From an uncultured Chloroflexia bacterium (GTDB lineage Bacteria > Chloroflexota > Limnocylindria > Limnocylindrales > CSP1-4): a stretch of 64,000 nucleotides of DNA. This document shows, in pieces, positions 7,371 through 15,403 of this stretch (positions are counted from its first letter, which is position 1; each line of letters opens with the position of its first letter). A model generated the notes under the pieces. That model worked only from the letters and a program-made list of their open reading frames with translations. It searched no databases and was not told where the DNA came from. The translations under genes and the position numbers were made by a program. The stretch is from the NCBI GenBank assembly GCA_963746845.1, contig CAVVCZ010000004.1:288001-352000 (forward strand), in the 5' to 3' direction.

Positions 7371-7407
7371 CGGCCGCGCCGATCGGCCCGAGGCCATCGC
7401 GCTCGCT

Positions 7408-7480
7408 GGGCCGGTAGCTCAATGGCAGAGCAACTGACTCTTAATCAGTTGGTTGGGAGTTCGAGTCTCCCGGCTCACCA
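7408..7480 (+). tRNA. tRNA-Lys (anticodon CTT)
   Basis: GGGCCGG-TAGCTCAATGGCAGAGC-ACTGA CT CTT AA TCAGT-GGGAG TTCGAGT CTCCC-GGCTC ACCA; the 3' acceptor strand appears 2 C short, probably a homopolymer error. Confidence 0.92.
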
Positions 7481-7497
7481 GCACCCTGAGCACGAAA

Positions 7498-8231: not shown

Positions 8232-10261
8232 ATGCGAGCTCTGGGCGCGCCCTGTCTGGCGGCGCGCCTGACCCTCACCGGTGCCGCGTGCGTTCTGCTT
8301 GCGGGCGCGTCTGCTGGCCCGGCCGACCGGTCCCGCCGGAGCGACATCGCCGGCCGCGGACGGCGCGGGCTCGGTCATCGCGACCTACCGCGACCGGATC
8401 TCGGAGCTCATGGCCGAGCAGGGCATTCCCGGGCTGGCTGTCGCCCTCGTCGATCGTGACAAGGTGTTGTGGACCGAGGGCTTCGGCCACCTCGATGACG
8501 ACGGCTCGGGACCGGTCACGGTCGACACGATGTTCAGCGTCCAGTCGATGTCGAAGAACTTCACGGCCGTCGCCGTCATGCAGGCCGTCGGGGCGGGACT
8601 GCTGGACCTCGACGAGCCGATCACGACCTACCTGCCGGACTTCACTGTCCACAGCGCCTTCGAGGATCACCCCGAGCGGAAGATCACCCTTCGGATGCTC
8701 TTGGCGCACACGGCCGGGTTCACCCATGAGGCACCGATCGGCAACAACTACGAGCGGGATCCGGGGACCTTCGAGGAGCACGTACGCAGCATCTCGGACA
8801 CCTGGCTCCGCTTCCCGGTCGGCAGTGGCCAGGCCTACTCGAACCTCGGGATCGACCTGGCCGGCGCGATCCTCGCCCGGGTCAACGACGCTCCATTCGC
8901 GGCGGTCATGCGCGACTCGCTCCTCGAGCCGCTGGGGATGTCGCGGAGCACGTTCGACCGAGACGAGATCCGGGCTGCGACCAACCGGGCCATCGGTCAC
9001 ACGTACCCGACTCCGGACCTGCCGATCTTCGAGCCAATGACCGCCGCCGGCGGGCTCTACACGAGCGCGACCGATCTCGCTCGCTATCTCCGCTTCCAGC
9101 TCAACGACGGCTCGATCGACGGCTTGGAGCTGTTGGATCCCGCGCTGATGACCGAGATGCGGACCATCCCGGCGCCGCACGCCAACGCGCCCGCAGGCTA
9201 CGCGCTCGGCGTCACCCGCTACCGCTGGCATGCAGCCGGAAACGCCGAGCTGTTCGGCCATGGCGGTGGCGGGTTCGGCTTCCTGTCGGACCTGTTGTGG
9301 TCGCCGCCGCTCGGCGTCGGGATCGCCGTCCTGACGAACTCGACGGATCAGGACCCCCAGTTCGATCTGGCCCTCTCGATTCTCGGCGACCTCGTCCATG
9401 AGGCGGGCACCGTCTACCACGCTCGCCTGCTCGCCCTGCCCGCCACGGACGCGGCCCAGGATCCCGATAGTCAGTACCTCGCCCCCGCCGGGATGGCGGA
9501 TCTCGTGGCTGCCGCGGGCATGGTTCCGCTCGGAGATGAACCGACGCGCTGGGCGGGGTACGTCGGCGACTACCGGATCCTGAAGGGCGGATTCATCGAT
9601 CCTGGGTCGCCTCCCGGACGATTCTTCGTCGAGTCGGGGGTCCCGTACTTCGACGCGGACGAGGAGGATGGGCTGAACCGGCACCGCCTCACGGAGGTCG
9701 AACCGGGGGTCTTCCTCGCCGAGAATGGCGAGACGCTCGATCTCCGGGGTTCGCCGCCGACCTGGCGAAGCCTTGACCTCCGGCGTGTCGATGGCGGCCC
9801 GGCGGCGTGGCAGTGGCTCCTCGCTCGCGGGCACGGGCGCTGCGACGGTCGTCTGGCTGACCTGGCCGGTCGCTGCCGCCCTGCGGCGACGCCGCTCCGT
9901 GCTTGCTCCCCACGTCGCGTCGCAGGTGGATCGCCGCTGGGGCCGGTTGACCGTGCTTGCCGGGGTCGTCACTGCGTTCTTCGCGTTCGGCGCGATCACG
10001 ATCGTCTTGGTCCAGCCGGCCATCGTCGAGGCCGGGTTCCTCGGGTGGCTCGAGCTGCCGATCGCGCAGCGCATCCTGCTCCATACCCCACTCGCGCTGG
10101 CGGTCGCGGCCGCCTGCTTGGCGTTCATGGTCGGGCTGGGCAGCTTGCGCCGCCAATGGTCGTTCGCGACCACACGCTGGCACGGTTTGCTGGTTGCTGC
10201 GAGTCTCGCCCTCGTCGTCCAGCTCGCGGCATGGGGCCTGATCGGCTGGGGCCTGACCTGA
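8232..10261 (+). CDS. Exported serine hydrolase (beta-lactamase-like) with C-terminal TM helices; apparent frameshifts near 8310 and 9820
   Basis: GGAGG-ATG at 8232 with signal-like N-terminus; SMSK, LLAHTAG, YSN and HGG in the 8281 frame; TM region in the 9725-10261 frame. Confidence 0.75.
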
Positions 10262-10427
10262 GGCCATCCGACCCTGGACACGCTGCCCATCATCGCCAAC
10301 CGCGACCCAAGATCCTTCAGGGCTGCTCGACCACCTCGATGGCCACCGTCAGCATTGCCGCGACGGCAGGCGCCTCTGTCCAGGCTCGACCGATCAGGAA
10401 CGGGACAGTCCCCGACCGCACTGTGGC

Positions 10428-10584
10428 ACCGTCGCGCTCGCGACCGTCCCCTGGCCGCCTGGAGCTCTCACTGAGCGATCAGGCGCACGGTCTCGGCCGG
10501 CAGCTCGCCTTTCCCGATGAGGCGCTGGACGGTGGCGGCTCGGCGAGCGGCGTGGAGACCTTCGAGCGTCGATCGGCGCGACAT
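10428..10584 (-). pseudogene. Degenerate paralog of the 66-aa protein at 11163-11363
   Basis: MSRRSTLEGLHAARRAATVQRLIGKGELPAETVRLIAQ*ELQAAR then frameshifted DGRERDG; TGA replaces the conserved Trp; same leader. Confidence 0.8.
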
Positions 10585-10630
10585 CGGGCGACCTCCGGCG
10601 ATGGGGTCGCGCGCCGGTACTCAGCGACCG
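10582..10630 (-). repeat. ~48-bp leader repeat, copy 1
   Basis: CATCGGGCGACCTCCGGCGATGGGGTCGCGCGCCGGTACTCAGCGACCG matches 11361-11407 and 12363-12410. Confidence 0.85.
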
Positions 10631-10742
10631 TGATCTACGCCCCGACGCGACGGCGGGGAGAGCCTCCGCGCCGGGGATGCCGTGCATCGTGCGCCTCGCG
10701 ATCTACCCCGGATCAGCCGCGGGTGATCGAGGCGAGAGCGAC

Positions 10743-11030
10743 TCAGTTGCGCCCGTCGACCATGTTCTCCGACCGGGCCTGGACGGTCACGCGCTCGCGG
10801 CGGTATTCCTCCAGCGCGAACTGGAAGGCGACGTTCCAGAAGTCCGGAGCCTTCCGGAAGTCCGCCAGCATCTCGGTGCTCCGGAGCCACTCGTCCACCA
10901 GCGGCTCCGCGGTCCGGGCGCGCCCGGGTCCTATTGTGGGTTCGATCAGCCGGGGGCCCAGGTCGAGCCGGACGGCATGTGCCACCTGCGATCCGGCGGA
11001 GTCGAGCCATTGTTCGCCGACGTGGTCCAC
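10743..11030 (-). CDS. Hypothetical protein, possibly 5'-truncated
   Basis: Protein-like composition (DEWLRSTEMLADFRKAPDFWNVAFQFALEEY); weak start. Confidence 0.45.
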   Translation of the reverse strand: MDHVGEQWLDSAGSQVAHAVRLDLGPRLIEPTIGPGRARTAEPLVDEWLRSTEMLADFRKAPDFWNVAFQFALEEYRRERVTVQARSENMVDGRN

Positions 11031-11162
11031 GGAGGCAGCAACGGATTGCTTGCCTTCCTCGCGGTCGGGGCCGCGGTTCTGCTCTGGCCGAAGCTCCGAA
11101 CCGCAAGCCAGCAGCAGGGCCCACGACAGCCGTCCAGCTAGGCAAGCGACGCTTCGGTTCAG

Positions 11163-11363
11163 CTAGCGCCGCTGGGCAAGCATCCACGCCCACCCGGCCT
11201 CCCAGTACCGCCCGTCGCGCTCAAGGCCGTCCCGCGCCGCCTGGAGCTCCCACTGCTCGACCAGACGCTCGGCCTGCTCGGGTGACTCGCCCTCGCCCAT
11301 CAGCCGCTGCCGGGTCTCGCGGCGCGCTTCGTGGAGTCGTTCGGGATCCGGACGACGAGCCAT
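11163..11363 (-). CDS. Small 66-aa Trp-rich helical hypothetical protein (repeated family)
   Basis: GGAGG SD; paralogous fragments at 10428-10584 and 15334-15403, the latter with only synonymous differences. Confidence 0.8.
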   Translation of the reverse strand: MARRPDPERLHEARRETRQRLMGEGESPEQAERLVEQWELQAARDGLERDGRYWEAGWAWMLAQRR

Positions 11364-11407
11364 CGGGCGACCTCCAACGATGGGGTCGCGCCGGTACTCG
11401 GTGACCG
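11361..11407 (-). repeat. ~48-bp leader repeat, copy 2 (5' UTR of the 66-aa gene)
   Basis: CATCGGGCGACCTCCAACGATGGGGTCGCGCCGGTACTCGGTGACCG. Confidence 0.85.
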
Positions 11408-11502
11408 TTGGACGACCGACATCGTAGGACCAACGAGTCGTAGCAGCGGCCCGCGGACGCAGCCACCGTCGACTTGCCTACTTACGCACGGATGCAATCA
11501 CC

Positions 11503-12093
11503 GTGACGAACGTCCCGTACAACGTCCCGCCATCACGATCGCTCGCTGACGCGATCCGCGACCCCTCGCTGACAGGCCTCCTCATCGCGGTCCTGCTCTC
11601 GTTCATCCCGTTCATGTGGCCGCTCACGATCTACATCGTCCTGCGTTACGTCACCGGACATCGCGCGATCCGGGGACTGGATACCTCCGCGATGACCGGT
11701 GGCTCGCTGCCCCATCCCGCCGTTCCTGTTGCGAACCGTTCAGCAGCTAATGCAGCGCAACGTGGAGTCTCACGCTCGGGACCGACCACCACAACGAAAA
11801 CGTGCCCGGACTGCGCCGAGACAGTCCTCCGCGGAGCCAGGATCTGCCGGTTCTGTCGGTTTGAGTTTCCGATTGAGGCTGTGTCGGTCGCAGATGTCGA
11901 GCAGCCCGCTGCCGCGTCAACGGCAAGCACTCCGACAAGTGGGACAGATCGGCACGGACGTAGATTTGTTGTCTGTTCGCTTTGCGGAAGGGACACTCAT
12001 CCTGAGTGGGAGCGGGTGTGCCAGTCCTGCGGTTGGGAGATCCCCGAAGCCAACCGACGATGGGGGGTCGAGCCAGCTCGTCTCTCGAGCTAA
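11503..12093 (+). CDS. Membrane protein with two zinc ribbons (UPF0547-like)
   Basis: N-terminal TM; CPDCAE...CRFCRFEF and CSLC...CQSC; lower GC than flanks. Confidence 0.7.
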   Translation: MTNVPYNVPPSRSLADAIRDPSLTGLLIAVLLSFIPFMWPLTIYIVLRYVTGHRAIRGLDTSAMTGGSLPHPAVPVANRSAANAAQRGVSRSGPTTTTKTCPDCAETVLRGARICRFCRFEFPIEAVSVADVEQPAAASTASTPTSGTDRHGRRFVVCSLCGRDTHPEWERVCQSCGWEIPEANRRWGVEPARLSS

Positions 12094-12105
12094 GCCGCAG
12101 GTAAG

Positions 12106-12188
12106 CGCCGCCCGCTAGGCTCACCGGCGGCCCGCCGCTTCGCGCGCCTGCTGCGTCCTCGAGGCCGGACCGACGGCGACGGCGGGCC
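12106..12188. repeat. Intergenic repeat family B, copy A (internally shortened)
   Basis: Shares CGCTAGGCT and an exact 21-mer GACCGACGGCGACGGCGGGCC with 14787-14950. Confidence 0.7.
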
Positions 12189-12298
12189 GGTCTCGTACCC
12201 CGATCCGTACCCCTTACAGGGTCCGTTCCCGTGCGATAGGACGGACGTATCGGGACGCAATCCACGCACGAAACGGCCTTCGGTGCGTCCCTGGATCA

Positions 12299-12353
12299 GA
12301 CTCTTGATCAGTTGGTTGGCAGTTCGAGTCTCCCCGGCTCACCAGCACCCTGA
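12299..12353 (+). repeat. attR-like duplicate of tRNA-Lys 3' half
   Basis: GACTCTTGATCAGTTGGTTGGCAGTTCGAGTCTCCCCGGCTCACCAGCACCCTGA versus 7436-7489. Confidence 0.9.
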
Positions 12354-12362
12354 ACGTGAAAC

Positions 12363-12410
12363 GATCGGGCGACCTCCTGCGATGGGTCGCGCGCCGGTAC
12401 TCGGCGACCG
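12363..12410 (-). repeat. ~48-bp leader repeat, copy 3 (orphan, ATG changed to ATC)
   Basis: GATCGGGCGACCTCCTGCGATGGGTCGCGCGCCGGTACTCGGCGACCG just after attR. Confidence 0.8.
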
Positions 12411-12440
12411 ATGCGGTTTTCGCCATCTTGCGCGGGCCGA

Positions 12441-12466
12441 GAACTGTTTGAACGCCTAGCCTCGTC
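12441..12466 (+). promoter_or_regulatory. Putative ECF-sigma autoregulatory promoter
   Basis: GAACT-17 nt-CGTC directly upstream of the ECF gene, suggesting a leaderless transcript. Confidence 0.45.
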
Positions 12467-12469
12467 TGT

Positions 12470-13051
12470 GTGGATGTGATCGGGACAGCAGACGACCGTT
12501 CGGCATCCAGCGTCGATGCGACACGACCGGAACAGGCCGGAGACATCGCAACGAGGCGCGTGCTCGAGCTCGCCGACCGCGGTCTGGACCGGGCGTTTCG
12601 GCTCGCCGGCCTGATCCTGGGCGATCAGTCCGAGGCGGAGGACGCGACGCAGGATGCTCTGGTCCGAGCATGGCGGGCGGCGGCGACGCTGCGGGATCCC
12701 TCGGGCTTCGATGCCTGGTTCGACCGGATCCTGGTCAACGTCTGCCGAGATCGGCTCCGCCGCCGCGGCACGGTCCGTCTCGTGACTCTTGATGGCGTCG
12801 CCGGGACCGTCGTCGTCGATGACCCGTTCCGCCGGGTCTACGATGACGATGAGCTGCTTGGCGCGATCAGGGCGCTCGGCGACGACGAGCGCGTCGTGCT
12901 GATCCTGCATTTCTGGGCCGACCTGACCCTCGAGGCGGTCGGCGCTCGTCTCGACTGTCCGGTCGGCACCGTCAAGTCGCGCCTCCATCGAGGGCTGAAG
13001 GCGATGCGTGGGCAGCTCGGGGCATCCGAGCGGGACGGGAGGCCCCGATGA
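12470..13051 (+). CDS. ECF RNA polymerase sigma-70 factor
   Basis: AEDATQDALVRAW, FDAWFDRILVN, region 4 PVGTVKSRLHRG. Confidence 0.9.
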   Translation: MDVIGTADDRSASSVDATRPEQAGDIATRRVLELADRGLDRAFRLAGLILGDQSEAEDATQDALVRAWRAAATLRDPSGFDAWFDRILVNVCRDRLRRRGTVRLVTLDGVAGTVVVDDPFRRVYDDDELLGAIRALGDDERVVLILHFWADLTLEAVGARLDCPVGTVKSRLHRGLKAMRGQLGASERDGRPR

Positions 13052-14082
13052 CTGACGACCTGAGCCGGGAGCTGCGGGAACGGCTCGGCCGAGTGAGCCT
13101 GCCGGCAGCACCCTCAAGCCTCCGGGACGAGATCGAGAACCTCCGAGCGATCCCTGCCGCCAGCCCCGTCCGGCGACGATCGGCGCGACCGCCGATGATG
13201 CTATTGGCCGCCGCGCTCGTGACCGTGGCACTCGTCGCTGCCGGAATCGGCGGCGCACTCCTCCGGGAACAAAACGAACCGCGTGAGAACCTGTCGCTGA
13301 TTGCCAGCCCGAGCCCGTCAACCGCCGTGTCGAGGTCGAGCTCCCCGAGCCCGAGCAAGATGGCATCGACCCCGAGCCCGACCGCCGTGCCGATCACCTG
13401 GACGCCGGCGAGTCTGAACGAGGACTGGCCGGGGCTGGTCCGCTCCGAGCCCGCCGGACCGCCGATCGTCGTGCCGATCCTGCTGAAGGTCGTGGTCATC
13501 CCGAAGGGTTGTCGGGTTGCGTGCACGTACCCCGGGAGTCCGTCGGGCCACCTGGCCGATCCAACGGGCGACACCGGGTCAGATGCTCTTCCCTGGGCCG
13601 ATATCAAGGACGTCTCCTTCTGCGGGGACACGGGCACCTGCCTGGCGATCGGGTTCGCCTCGGAGTCCCCAGTCGGGGTCGATCCCAGAGAGCGGTGGTT
13701 CGCCTACGGCGTCGTCGTGGACACCGATGGCGACGGCGTTGCGGACTGGCGATACGGGATTGACAACGACCCCGTCGGCACACCGGGTGCTCATGGGTCG
13801 TCGCCCCGCCGATGGTGGCGGACCGACCTTCACACCGGTCGGACTGAATCCACGGTCAACGTCGCAATGTGGGAAGGCGGCGGACCCTTCTGGGGGAACC
13901 ACGGAGACCAGACTGCTGGCAGCGGGCTCTCGTTTGGTGGCGACACGACCGCCGGCGTGCGCGGAGGCGTACCCAAGCGCTTCTACGCGTGGGCATCGGT
14001 GATCCAGGATGGCCGGGTCGTTTCCACCGACTACGCTCCCGATGCTGGGTGGCTCGTTCCGTCGGCCGACGCGAAGAAGTGA
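13048..14082 (+). CDS. Putative anti-sigma factor (single TM, extracytoplasmic domain)
   Basis: ATGA overlap with sigma; short cytoplasmic N-terminus, TM, S/P linker, DTDGDGVAD Ca-binding-like motif. Confidence 0.7.
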   Translation: MTDDLSRELRERLGRVSLPAAPSSLRDEIENLRAIPAASPVRRRSARPPMMLLAAALVTVALVAAGIGGALLREQNEPRENLSLIASPSPSTAVSRSSSPSPSKMASTPSPTAVPITWTPASLNEDWPGLVRSEPAGPPIVVPILLKVVVIPKGCRVACTYPGSPSGHLADPTGDTGSDALPWADIKDVSFCGDTGTCLAIGFASESPVGVDPRERWFAYGVVVDTDGDGVADWRYGIDNDPVGTPGAHGSSPRRWWRTDLHTGRTESTVNVAMWEGGGPFWGNHGDQTAGSGLSFGGDTTAGVRGGVPKRFYAWASVIQDGRVVSTDYAPDAGWLVPSADAKK

Positions 14083-14189: not shown

Positions 14190-14255
14190 TTCGCGACGCC
14201 GTCGCTCCGCGCGTCGGCTACGCCCTCAAGGCTAGACCGGCGGTGACGCCGGGCC
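14190..14255. repeat. Intergenic repeat family B, copy B
   Basis: CCGTCGCTCCGCGCGTCGGCTACGCCCTCAAGGCTAGACCGGCGGTGACGCCGGGCC aligns to copies A and C. Confidence 0.65.
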
Positions 14256-14786: not shown

Positions 14787-14950
14787 CGCCGCCGCTAGGC
14801 TGGCGGGCCGGTTGCTTGCGACGATCGGAAGATGCTGCGGCGGGCAGCCTGTGCCGAGATGGCGAAGCAACGTGCATGACAGCTTCGCGACCGGCCGCCG
14901 CTCCGCGCGCCGGCTGCGTGTGACAGCTAGACCGACGGCGACGGCGGGCC
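14787..14950. repeat. Intergenic repeat family B, copy C (longest, ~165 bp)
   Basis: Both ends match copy A. Confidence 0.7.
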
Positions 14951-15212: not shown

Positions 15213-15333
15213 GACCCACCTGCCTCACTTGGCCGCGAGAGCCGATAACTGGACGGCATACCGGAGGCTCGCACTATGGAGCCTACAACCGTGGGGCGAC
15301 GGGGTTAGCCTGGGCCGCAGCGGCCGCCCGTCG

Positions 15334-15403
15334 CTATCGCCGCTGGGCGAGCATCCACGCCCAGCCAGCCTCCCAGTACCGCCCGTCGCGCTCGAGCCCG
15401 TCC
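15334..15403 (-). pseudogene. 3' fragment of the 66-aa gene family
   Basis: Encodes DGLERDGRYWEAGWAWMLAQRR*, identical to 11163-11231, with six third-position differences. Confidence 0.85.

Follow-up and report, generated by a model that had tools for sequence, protein, structure and literature searches.

A conserved 5' leader probably hides the ribosome site of a fast-turnover small gene in uncultured Chloroflexota

In a stretch of 64,000 nucleotides from the genome of an uncultured Chloroflexia bacterium (assembly GCA_963746845.1, contig CAVVCZ010000004.1, positions 288,001 to 352,000; hereafter the window), a block of about 50 nt is present three times, each time on the minus strand (copies w1, w2 and w3; Table 1). 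Sequence comparison indicates that the block is probably a 5' leader under selection, with a fold that conceals the ribosome site of a small gene with fast turnover, and that it is probably a new cis-regulatory motif of the ordinary translation-brake kind, occluding the Shine-Dalgarno sequence (SD). The block is conserved and able to pair, shows some compensatory changes, and keeps a fixed position relative to the SD and the AUG. Soil Chloroflexota are abundant and uncultivated, and to our knowledge almost nothing is known of gene control at the RNA level in them. If confirmed, the leader would represent a cis-regulatory RNA motif specific to one clade and linked to an uncharacterised family of ~70-aa proteins without a Pfam model.

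Read on the minus strand, the three window copies share the consensus CGGUCRCYGAGUACCGGCG(CG)CGACCC(C)AUCGnnGGAGGUCGCCCGAU(G/C). The 14-mer GGAGGTCGCCCGAT, which contains the SD, has exactly three matches in the window, each at a leader copy. The 13-mer GAGTACCGGCGCG likewise has exactly three matches there and five in the 3.56-Mb genome, each at a leader copy. A repeat search of the window returned the 23-nt SD part at 91-96% identity, the 27-nt 5' part at 78-96% and the coding repeat at 72%. The preliminary description of this DNA had recorded three minus-strand copies, with GGTCAC in copy 2, an invariant GCGACC/GGTCGC stem and a varying loop. All of these details are correct on reading the sequence, the loop being CA, TT or CC, and outside these sites the window has no exact match to the core words. 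It can be added that only copy 2 (w2) stands in front of an intact open reading frame (ORF), that the ORF of copy 3 (w3) contains an in-frame TGA, and that copy 1 (w1) has no ORF behind it and abuts a copy of the 3' half of tRNA-Lys.

Homologous leaders were collected with a covariance model, which among 43 genomes of the genus reached 46 bits or more only in the genome studied here (G000) and in G016, G065, G017, G026, G031 and G036. These genomes and metagenome contigs gave a set of 32 distinct copies, all from one Chloroflexota genus; w1, w2 and w3 match the model with 67.8, 69.5 and 78.7 bits, respectively. Single-sequence folds yield two hairpins. P1 consists of CGCCG, the loop AGUAC and CGGCG, and P2 pairs GCGACC(CC) with (GG)A-GGUCGC over GGAGG, engaging four of the five SD bases; the minimum free energy (MFE) fold of w2 has the SD paired. 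Across the 32 copies, 95.6% of the cells of P1 and P2 pair, against 12-51% with slid partners. One-sided changes that preserve the pairs are all G-U, while the two bottom pairs of P2 show changes on both sides in six cells (GC to UA, AU or UG; CG to GC), and the covariation score was reached by none of 500 shuffles. One copy, L049, carries a fully compensated 10-bp helix, GAGGACCUCC/GGAGGUCCUC, and four others (L031, L048, L085 and L086) pair GACCUCC with GGAGGUC. Covariation, which the preliminary description had named as the check on its SD-hiding hairpin, is found in two pairs of P2 and supports the hairpin; the alternative helix discussed below shows no covariation.

Diverged leaders of the same gene family retain a hairpin that hides the SD region, built with other partner sequences. 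In four copies of genome G005 and in L035, the partner of GAGUACC is GGUACUC, GGUACUU or GGUGCUC directly behind the SD; L012 has GGACC opposite GGUCC, and in L033 AGCC/GGCU takes the place of P1. Almost no variation is seen in the P1 loop AGUAC or in the 5' GGUC. Substitutions in the paired columns are asymmetric: C>T occurs in 19 cells (nine column/change combinations) and G>A in four (four combinations), an excess expected for an RNA of this strand, in which C>T keeps a G-U pair. In 11 copies, 4.5-15.1 kcal/mol (37 C) are needed to open the SD. The median cost is 8.45 over the 32 leaders and 4.4 over 400 other GGAGG-bearing starts of the same genome, 9% of which reach the leader median. The consensus also contains a pseudoknot in which CAUCG of the P2 loop pairs with CGAUG at the start codon; it was rejected, as loop variants in L075, L082, L083 and L037 break the pairing without compensation.

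Several observations weigh against an SD-hiding leader. Its folding energy is ordinary for its composition (shuffle z-scores of -2.86 to +0.54 and of -2.88 to -0.01 in two sets), and its SD occlusion reaches only about the 84th-91st percentile of other genes. When RNAalifold was given a MAFFT alignment free of any fitting to the model, P2 was missing; the structure, at -7.2 kcal/mol, consisted of P1 and three pairs of the alternative helix and contained no compensatory pair. P2 was recovered only on the model-fitted alignment, which leans towards P2. Only the two bottom pairs of P2 carry compensatory changes, most of which belong to a single sub-clade (L031, L048, L049, L085 and L086). The sequences are non-independent, being drawn from one genus and from similar metagenome contigs, and the G005-type leaders pair only the last two G of GGAGG.

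The leader had been described as better conserved than the N-terminal coding region, and it is indeed conserved beyond the synonymous sites of the coding sequence. Over the 36 pairs formed by nine near-intact copies, identity is 91% in the leader, 64% at synonymous sites (codon position 3) and 27% in the 50 nt upstream. Homology between copies has a sharp onset at GGTCGCC and extends as far as the stop codon. These values bear on a reading without function, in which the leaders are alike through recent duplication or gene conversion and the hairpins are what any sequence of 71% G+C gives. Such a reading, which would accommodate the mostly insignificant MFE z-scores, the clustering and fast turnover of the copies and the single-genus sequence set, is very unlikely. 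Recency cannot explain the likeness of the leaders, because synonymous sites and flanks have diverged in the same copies; gene conversion would need to stop exactly at the leader's 5' edge, and diverged relatives retain SD pairing with other sequences.

The block always stands 7 nt before the start codon, at a fixed distance to both SD and AUG. In 13 of the 32 copies, GGUC is preceded at 13-23 nt by the hexamer TANNNT, where ~0.5 would be expected from its genome frequency of 0.00045 per base, and a close variant can be seen by eye in many other copies. Such a position agrees with transcription beginning a few bases ahead of the block. A scan for consensus promoters gave no sites on either strand, a result that says little for this phylum.

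The gene behind the leader belongs to a family of ~67-aa proteins with the consensus MSRRSTPERLHxARREATRQRLIGEGExPDQAERLVAQWELQAAxDGLERDGRYWDAGWAWMLAQRR (27 sequences). Codon positions 1 and 2 are 89% identical in the same 36 pairs, and since they are better kept than position 3 (64%), the small ORF is a genuine coding gene. The rare Arg codon CGA is nearly fixed at codon 4. The protein (66-67 aa) is rich in R, E, D and Q, and AlphaFold2 models it as three amphipathic helices with a pLDDT of 82. Searches of Pfam and PHROG with the small protein matched no family, a search of the ESM Atlas gave no usable match, and Foldseek against the PDB gave none at E <=0.001, the best being generic three-helix matches to RuvA domain III (E 0.8). 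Membership in DUF4880 was considered and rejected as noise: a single relative, L018, matches it weakly (E 0.015; 15.6 bits against a cut-off of 25). The appeal of this identity lay in the ECF sigma gene beside w1, which already has its own downstream membrane partner.

A profile search found 690 cluster representatives of the small protein at E <=0.001 and 170 at 1e-10. The ten that were looked up are unnamed or labelled 'hypothetical protein', and the one NCBI record among them is from Chloroflexota. Distant members of the family (L015, L018, L020, L022 and L032) have no SD, and a -10-like hexamer ends 6 nt before their start codon; they appear to be single-copy genes read from leaderless mRNAs. 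The leaderless examples include L019, from an unpublished genome (G010), and nothing rests on L019 alone. The family thus offers a natural experiment, some members having a structured SD leader and others being apparently leaderless. In four of five distant loci scanned the small gene lies directly downstream of an amidohydrolase gene, L018 having other neighbours, and in two distant loci a GntR/aminotransferase gene comes after the small gene.

The explanation we favour, and consider rather probable, is a brake on translation: the block would be the transcribed 5' untranslated leader of a stand-alone small gene, with the RNA starting a few bases before GGUCGCC and folding into P1 and P2. The 3' strand of P2 would be formed by GGAGG and the following four bases, so that the ground state would have a paired ribosome site and the leader would hold down synthesis of the ~67-aa protein in cis. 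We infer a promoter just upstream, a lowering of translation by the pairing, and something that opens the hairpin, for which a factor, co-transcriptional folding or the small protein itself are candidates. The entire initiation region may in addition be closed by a third pairing, which is long-range and joins the 5' end to codons 2-5. In this helix (P0), the 5' CGGUCGCCGAG meets codons 2-5 (CUCGCCGAUCG); 86% of cells pair, and one pair occurs as AU, GU and GC. P0 scores no better than shuffles and counts as no more than a possibility.

In the preliminary description, the upstream GGUCGC was proposed to act as a switch, competing with the SD strand for GCGACC. A two-state riboregulator of this kind, in which a trigger (ligand, protein, temperature, or the order of transcription, as in the metastable hairpins of toxin mRNAs) tips the equilibrium so that the SD becomes free, is in our view unlikely. 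The 5' segment does have three mutually exclusive partners (P1, GCGACC and codons 2-5), which is suggestive of a switch, and the alternative GGUCGC:GCGACC helix is sterically possible. It can form in 93% of cells, lies 1.8-5.8 kcal/mol above the MFE in five of seven copies tested (w1, w3, L029, L036 and L038), is the MFE structure of L033, and is the helix that RNAalifold selects in part on the unfitted alignment; the near-invariant P1 loop and 5' GGUC are also as expected of recognition sites. The helix nevertheless shows no changes on both sides and scores no higher than shuffles, and its outer G is lost in five of the 32 copies. Enforcing it costs 11.4 kcal/mol in L037 and 17.3 kcal/mol in w2, the window's only intact copy, both of which precede intact ORFs. 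No equivalent upstream competitor is visible in G005-type leaders, no Rfam aptamer matches, and the stems are too G+C-rich for a thermometer.

We attach little probability to a related proposal, that the leader is a compact sensing or autoregulatory element in which a factor recognises the near-invariant P1 (AGUAC) and the 5' GGUC, chooses among the three exclusive pairings of the 5' segment and thereby sets translation. Recognition could for instance be by the protein that the gene itself encodes, through its arginine-rich N-terminus (MSRRSTPERLHAARREATRQRL). If true, RNA and protein would together form a self-contained feedback cassette, one that is spreading and decaying in the plastic, tRNA-linked regions of uncultivated Chloroflexota.

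A translation brake would sit here in a gene family that undergoes rapid birth and death in plastic regions beside tRNA genes, which would account for two of the three window copies being dead, a lesson for annotation. The genome holds at least eight copies or pieces of the small gene, all on one contig, and a search of 61 related genomes matched the gene in 21, the maximum being 15 matches, in G016. All 32 strong matches of the leader model stand before the small ORF or a remnant of it, and 27 keep ATG or GTG at the same distance. An uninterrupted full-length ORF follows only eight. The remaining ORFs are cut after nt 2, 14, 14, 17, 31, 53, 80, 112, ~121, 156 or 161, or contain stops or frameshifts. 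Broken copies with at least 100 nt of ORF left are 0.86-0.96 identical at codon positions 1 and 2 and 0.63-0.83 at position 3, and because positions 1 and 2 are still the better conserved, these copies died recently. The same holds for the break in the ORF behind w3, which compared with an intact copy has 0.88 identity at positions 1 and 2 and 0.71 at position 3. A function of the leader independent of the ORF was rejected, since broken copies with at least 100 nt of ORF carry this coding signature of recent loss. Retro-copying of the transcript, brought up by the onset of homology near the putative transcript start, was rejected as well: homology ends at the stop codon and not at a terminator, a pattern that selection alone would leave.

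Some copies carry further sequence. In L075:151-300 and L005:5577-5720 (G065), the leader and 14-17 nt of the ORF are fused to the same downstream sequence, which has its own GAGGAGG and ATG (MPEEVDPL...); in these two loci a different gene may have acquired the leader upstream of it. Copy w3 and the copy c5 of the tRNA-Leu island share ~290 nt more of upstream homology (10429-10916 against C4:910584-911074; 77% over 495 nt); a CCCCG...CGGGG hairpin directly in front of the leader is part of it. Upstream sequence of this type is also found in L082, L074 and L005b, a sub-family with a longer unit. Further family debris, a leaderless 3' fragment of the small ORF, lies just beyond the window's end at C4:352644-352807.

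Copies w2 and w3 lie inside a decayed 4.9-kb island between att-like repeats, with w1 just outside: the ATC of w1 is followed by 2 nt and then by a 55-63-nt copy of the tRNA-Lys 3' half and its downstream bases. In the whole genome, the three clusters of copies lie in, or at most 2 kb from, islands bounded by repeats of the 3' halves of tRNA-Lys, tRNA-Pro (1.8 kb; repeats C4:600876-600917 and 602661-602702) and tRNA-Leu (2.8 kb; repeats C4:911527-911583 and 908697-908753). In relatives, copies lie shortly downstream of tRNA-Pro, tRNA-Val and tRNA-Cys, always convergent with the tRNA. This setting, the direct contact of w1 with an att repeat, and the many ORFs cut at differing points while the leader stays whole would suit conservation at the DNA level, with the nested hexamers (GGTCGC, GCGACC, GGTCGC) serving as an operator or an island recombination site and the RNA fold being incidental. 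We judge this highly improbable. The C>T excess in paired columns is strand-specific (19 against 4), and pairing is kept in relatives without the sequence. The broken copies are young, so that an intact leader needs no function of its own. The block does not behave as an attC or other recombination site, being fixed 7 nt before the start and at a constant distance to SD and AUG, and of only four PF00589 integrase matches in the whole genome the sole one near copies is the truncated remnant beside tRNA-Lys. Viral contigs contained no exact leader match and no relative of the small protein.

On its other side, w1 is divergent from the ECF sigma gene at 12470-13051, which together with an overlapping downstream membrane-protein gene (likely an anti-sigma factor) spans 12470-14082. 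The metagenome contig L039 has the same sigma-side flank followed by a leader and an intact ORF, a locus orthologous to w1; in G016 the same flank stands directly upstream of a leader whose start is ACG and whose ORF is cut after nt 112. A separate family of 40-100-nt repeats with 75-93% identity occurs near the att-like repeats of all three islands (window 12092-12189, 14190-14255 and 14884-14950; C4:605594-605689, 603490-603528 and 908779-908821). Within the tRNA-Lys island, a protein of 196 aa that carries a membrane segment at its N-terminus, together with two zinc-ribbon motifs (weak UPF0547/DZR matches), is encoded at 11503-12093 (plus strand), between w2 and the att repeat. A beta-lactamase-family (serine hydrolase) gene at 8281-10261 (PF00144, E 1e-65) apparently changes frame: its likely membrane C-terminus lies in another frame (9725-10261), and the first frame continues as Arg-rich nonsense to 11166. 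The gene is either frameshifted or affected by an assembly error.

Table 1. Leader copies, small ORFs and island features of the window (positions counted from its first nucleotide)
Feature	Position	Strand	Details
Leader w1	12360..12416	-	GGUCGC 12409-12404, GCGACC 12390-12385, GGAGG 12377-12373; ATC replaces AUG
Leader w2	11358..11413	-	GGUCAC 11406-11401, GCGACC (anti-SD) 11389-11384, GGAGG (SD) 11375-11371, AUG 11363-11361
Leader w3	10579..10636	-	GGUCGC 10629-10624, GCGACC 10610-10605, GGAGG 10596-10592, AUG 10584-10582
Intact small ORF, 66 aa	11363-11166 (to 11163 including stop)	-	ORF list; three-helix protein family
Broken small ORF behind w3	10429..10584	-	In-frame TGA at the family's conserved Trp; homology stops after nt 156
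Isolated 3' fragment of small ORF (DGLERDGRYWEAGWAWML...)	15333..15403	-	tblastn; blastn 92% identity to w2 3' end; without leader
tRNA-Lys(CTT)	7407..7479	+	ARAGORN, Rfam; other end of the 4.9-kb island holding w2 and w3
Att-like direct repeat, tRNA-Lys 3' half and ~20 nt	12299..12361	+	blastn 90-95% identity to 7436-7497
Tyrosine integrase C-terminal remnant, 123 aa	7561..7932	-	Pfam PF00589, E 6.9e-16, profile positions 71-170 only; adjoins tRNA

Rfam 15 at gathering thresholds returned only tRNA over the whole window, and at E values up to 10 the region 10300-12600 gave two unrelated weak matches, none on a leader. With no family matched, the suggestion of a new cis-regulatory RNA stands as a candidate. 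Among the papers listed in a literature search on cis-regulatory RNA in Chloroflexi, none deals with the motif, and its novelty in print rests on that search and on Rfam. The leader is a member of none of the families tested. From the earlier interpretation, the selected SD-hiding leader and the candidate cis-regulatory RNA are retained, and the switch, the type I toxin leader and the thermometer are not.

The mRNAs of type I toxins such as hok and tisB resemble the leader in combining a small ORF, a hidden SD, competing 5' hairpins, many decaying copies and a possible long-range pairing of the 5' end to the coding region. Concealment of the SD by local or long-range pairing with competing 5' structures is found here too and indicates a mechanism, not membership. 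A toxin leader is unlikely, because the product, from reading its sequence and from the AlphaFold2 model, is a three-helix bundle that is charged, looks soluble and has no hydrophobic helix. With thermometers of the ROSE and fourU types the leader shares an SD set in a hairpin with a bulge or imperfection, here the A of GGAGG in most copies. The anti-SD stem of these thermometers is weak, imperfect, U-rich or with UYGCU, and melts at physiological temperature; the ROSE families are present in Rfam. In the leader, the anti-SD is CC..CC and GCGACC, GCGACC(C)C or GACCUCC, forming 8-10 mostly G-C pairs, and a thermometer is unlikely given this G+C-rich stem and the 4-15 kcal/mol needed to open it.

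Guanidine-II (mini-ykkC) and other very small riboswitches likewise consist of two short G+C-rich hairpins just upstream of or overlapping the SD within ~50 nt. The leader differs from Guanidine-II in its loops, which are AGUAC and a variable 6-10 nt and not ACGR, in having no model match, and in being tied to a single small gene and not to transporters or metabolic genes. Considered as a riboswitch, the leader has all its strong matches before one small ORF family or its remnants, and covariation in two pairs. In mechanism the leader resembles the general class of SD-sequestering hairpins in 5' untranslated regions, with which it shares a 3' strand made of the SD and its spacer, a position 7 nt before the AUG, and selection together with its gene. 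Unlike these hairpins in general, it is a specific, sequence-conserved block of two hairpins that belongs to one small-protein family in one Chloroflexota genus.

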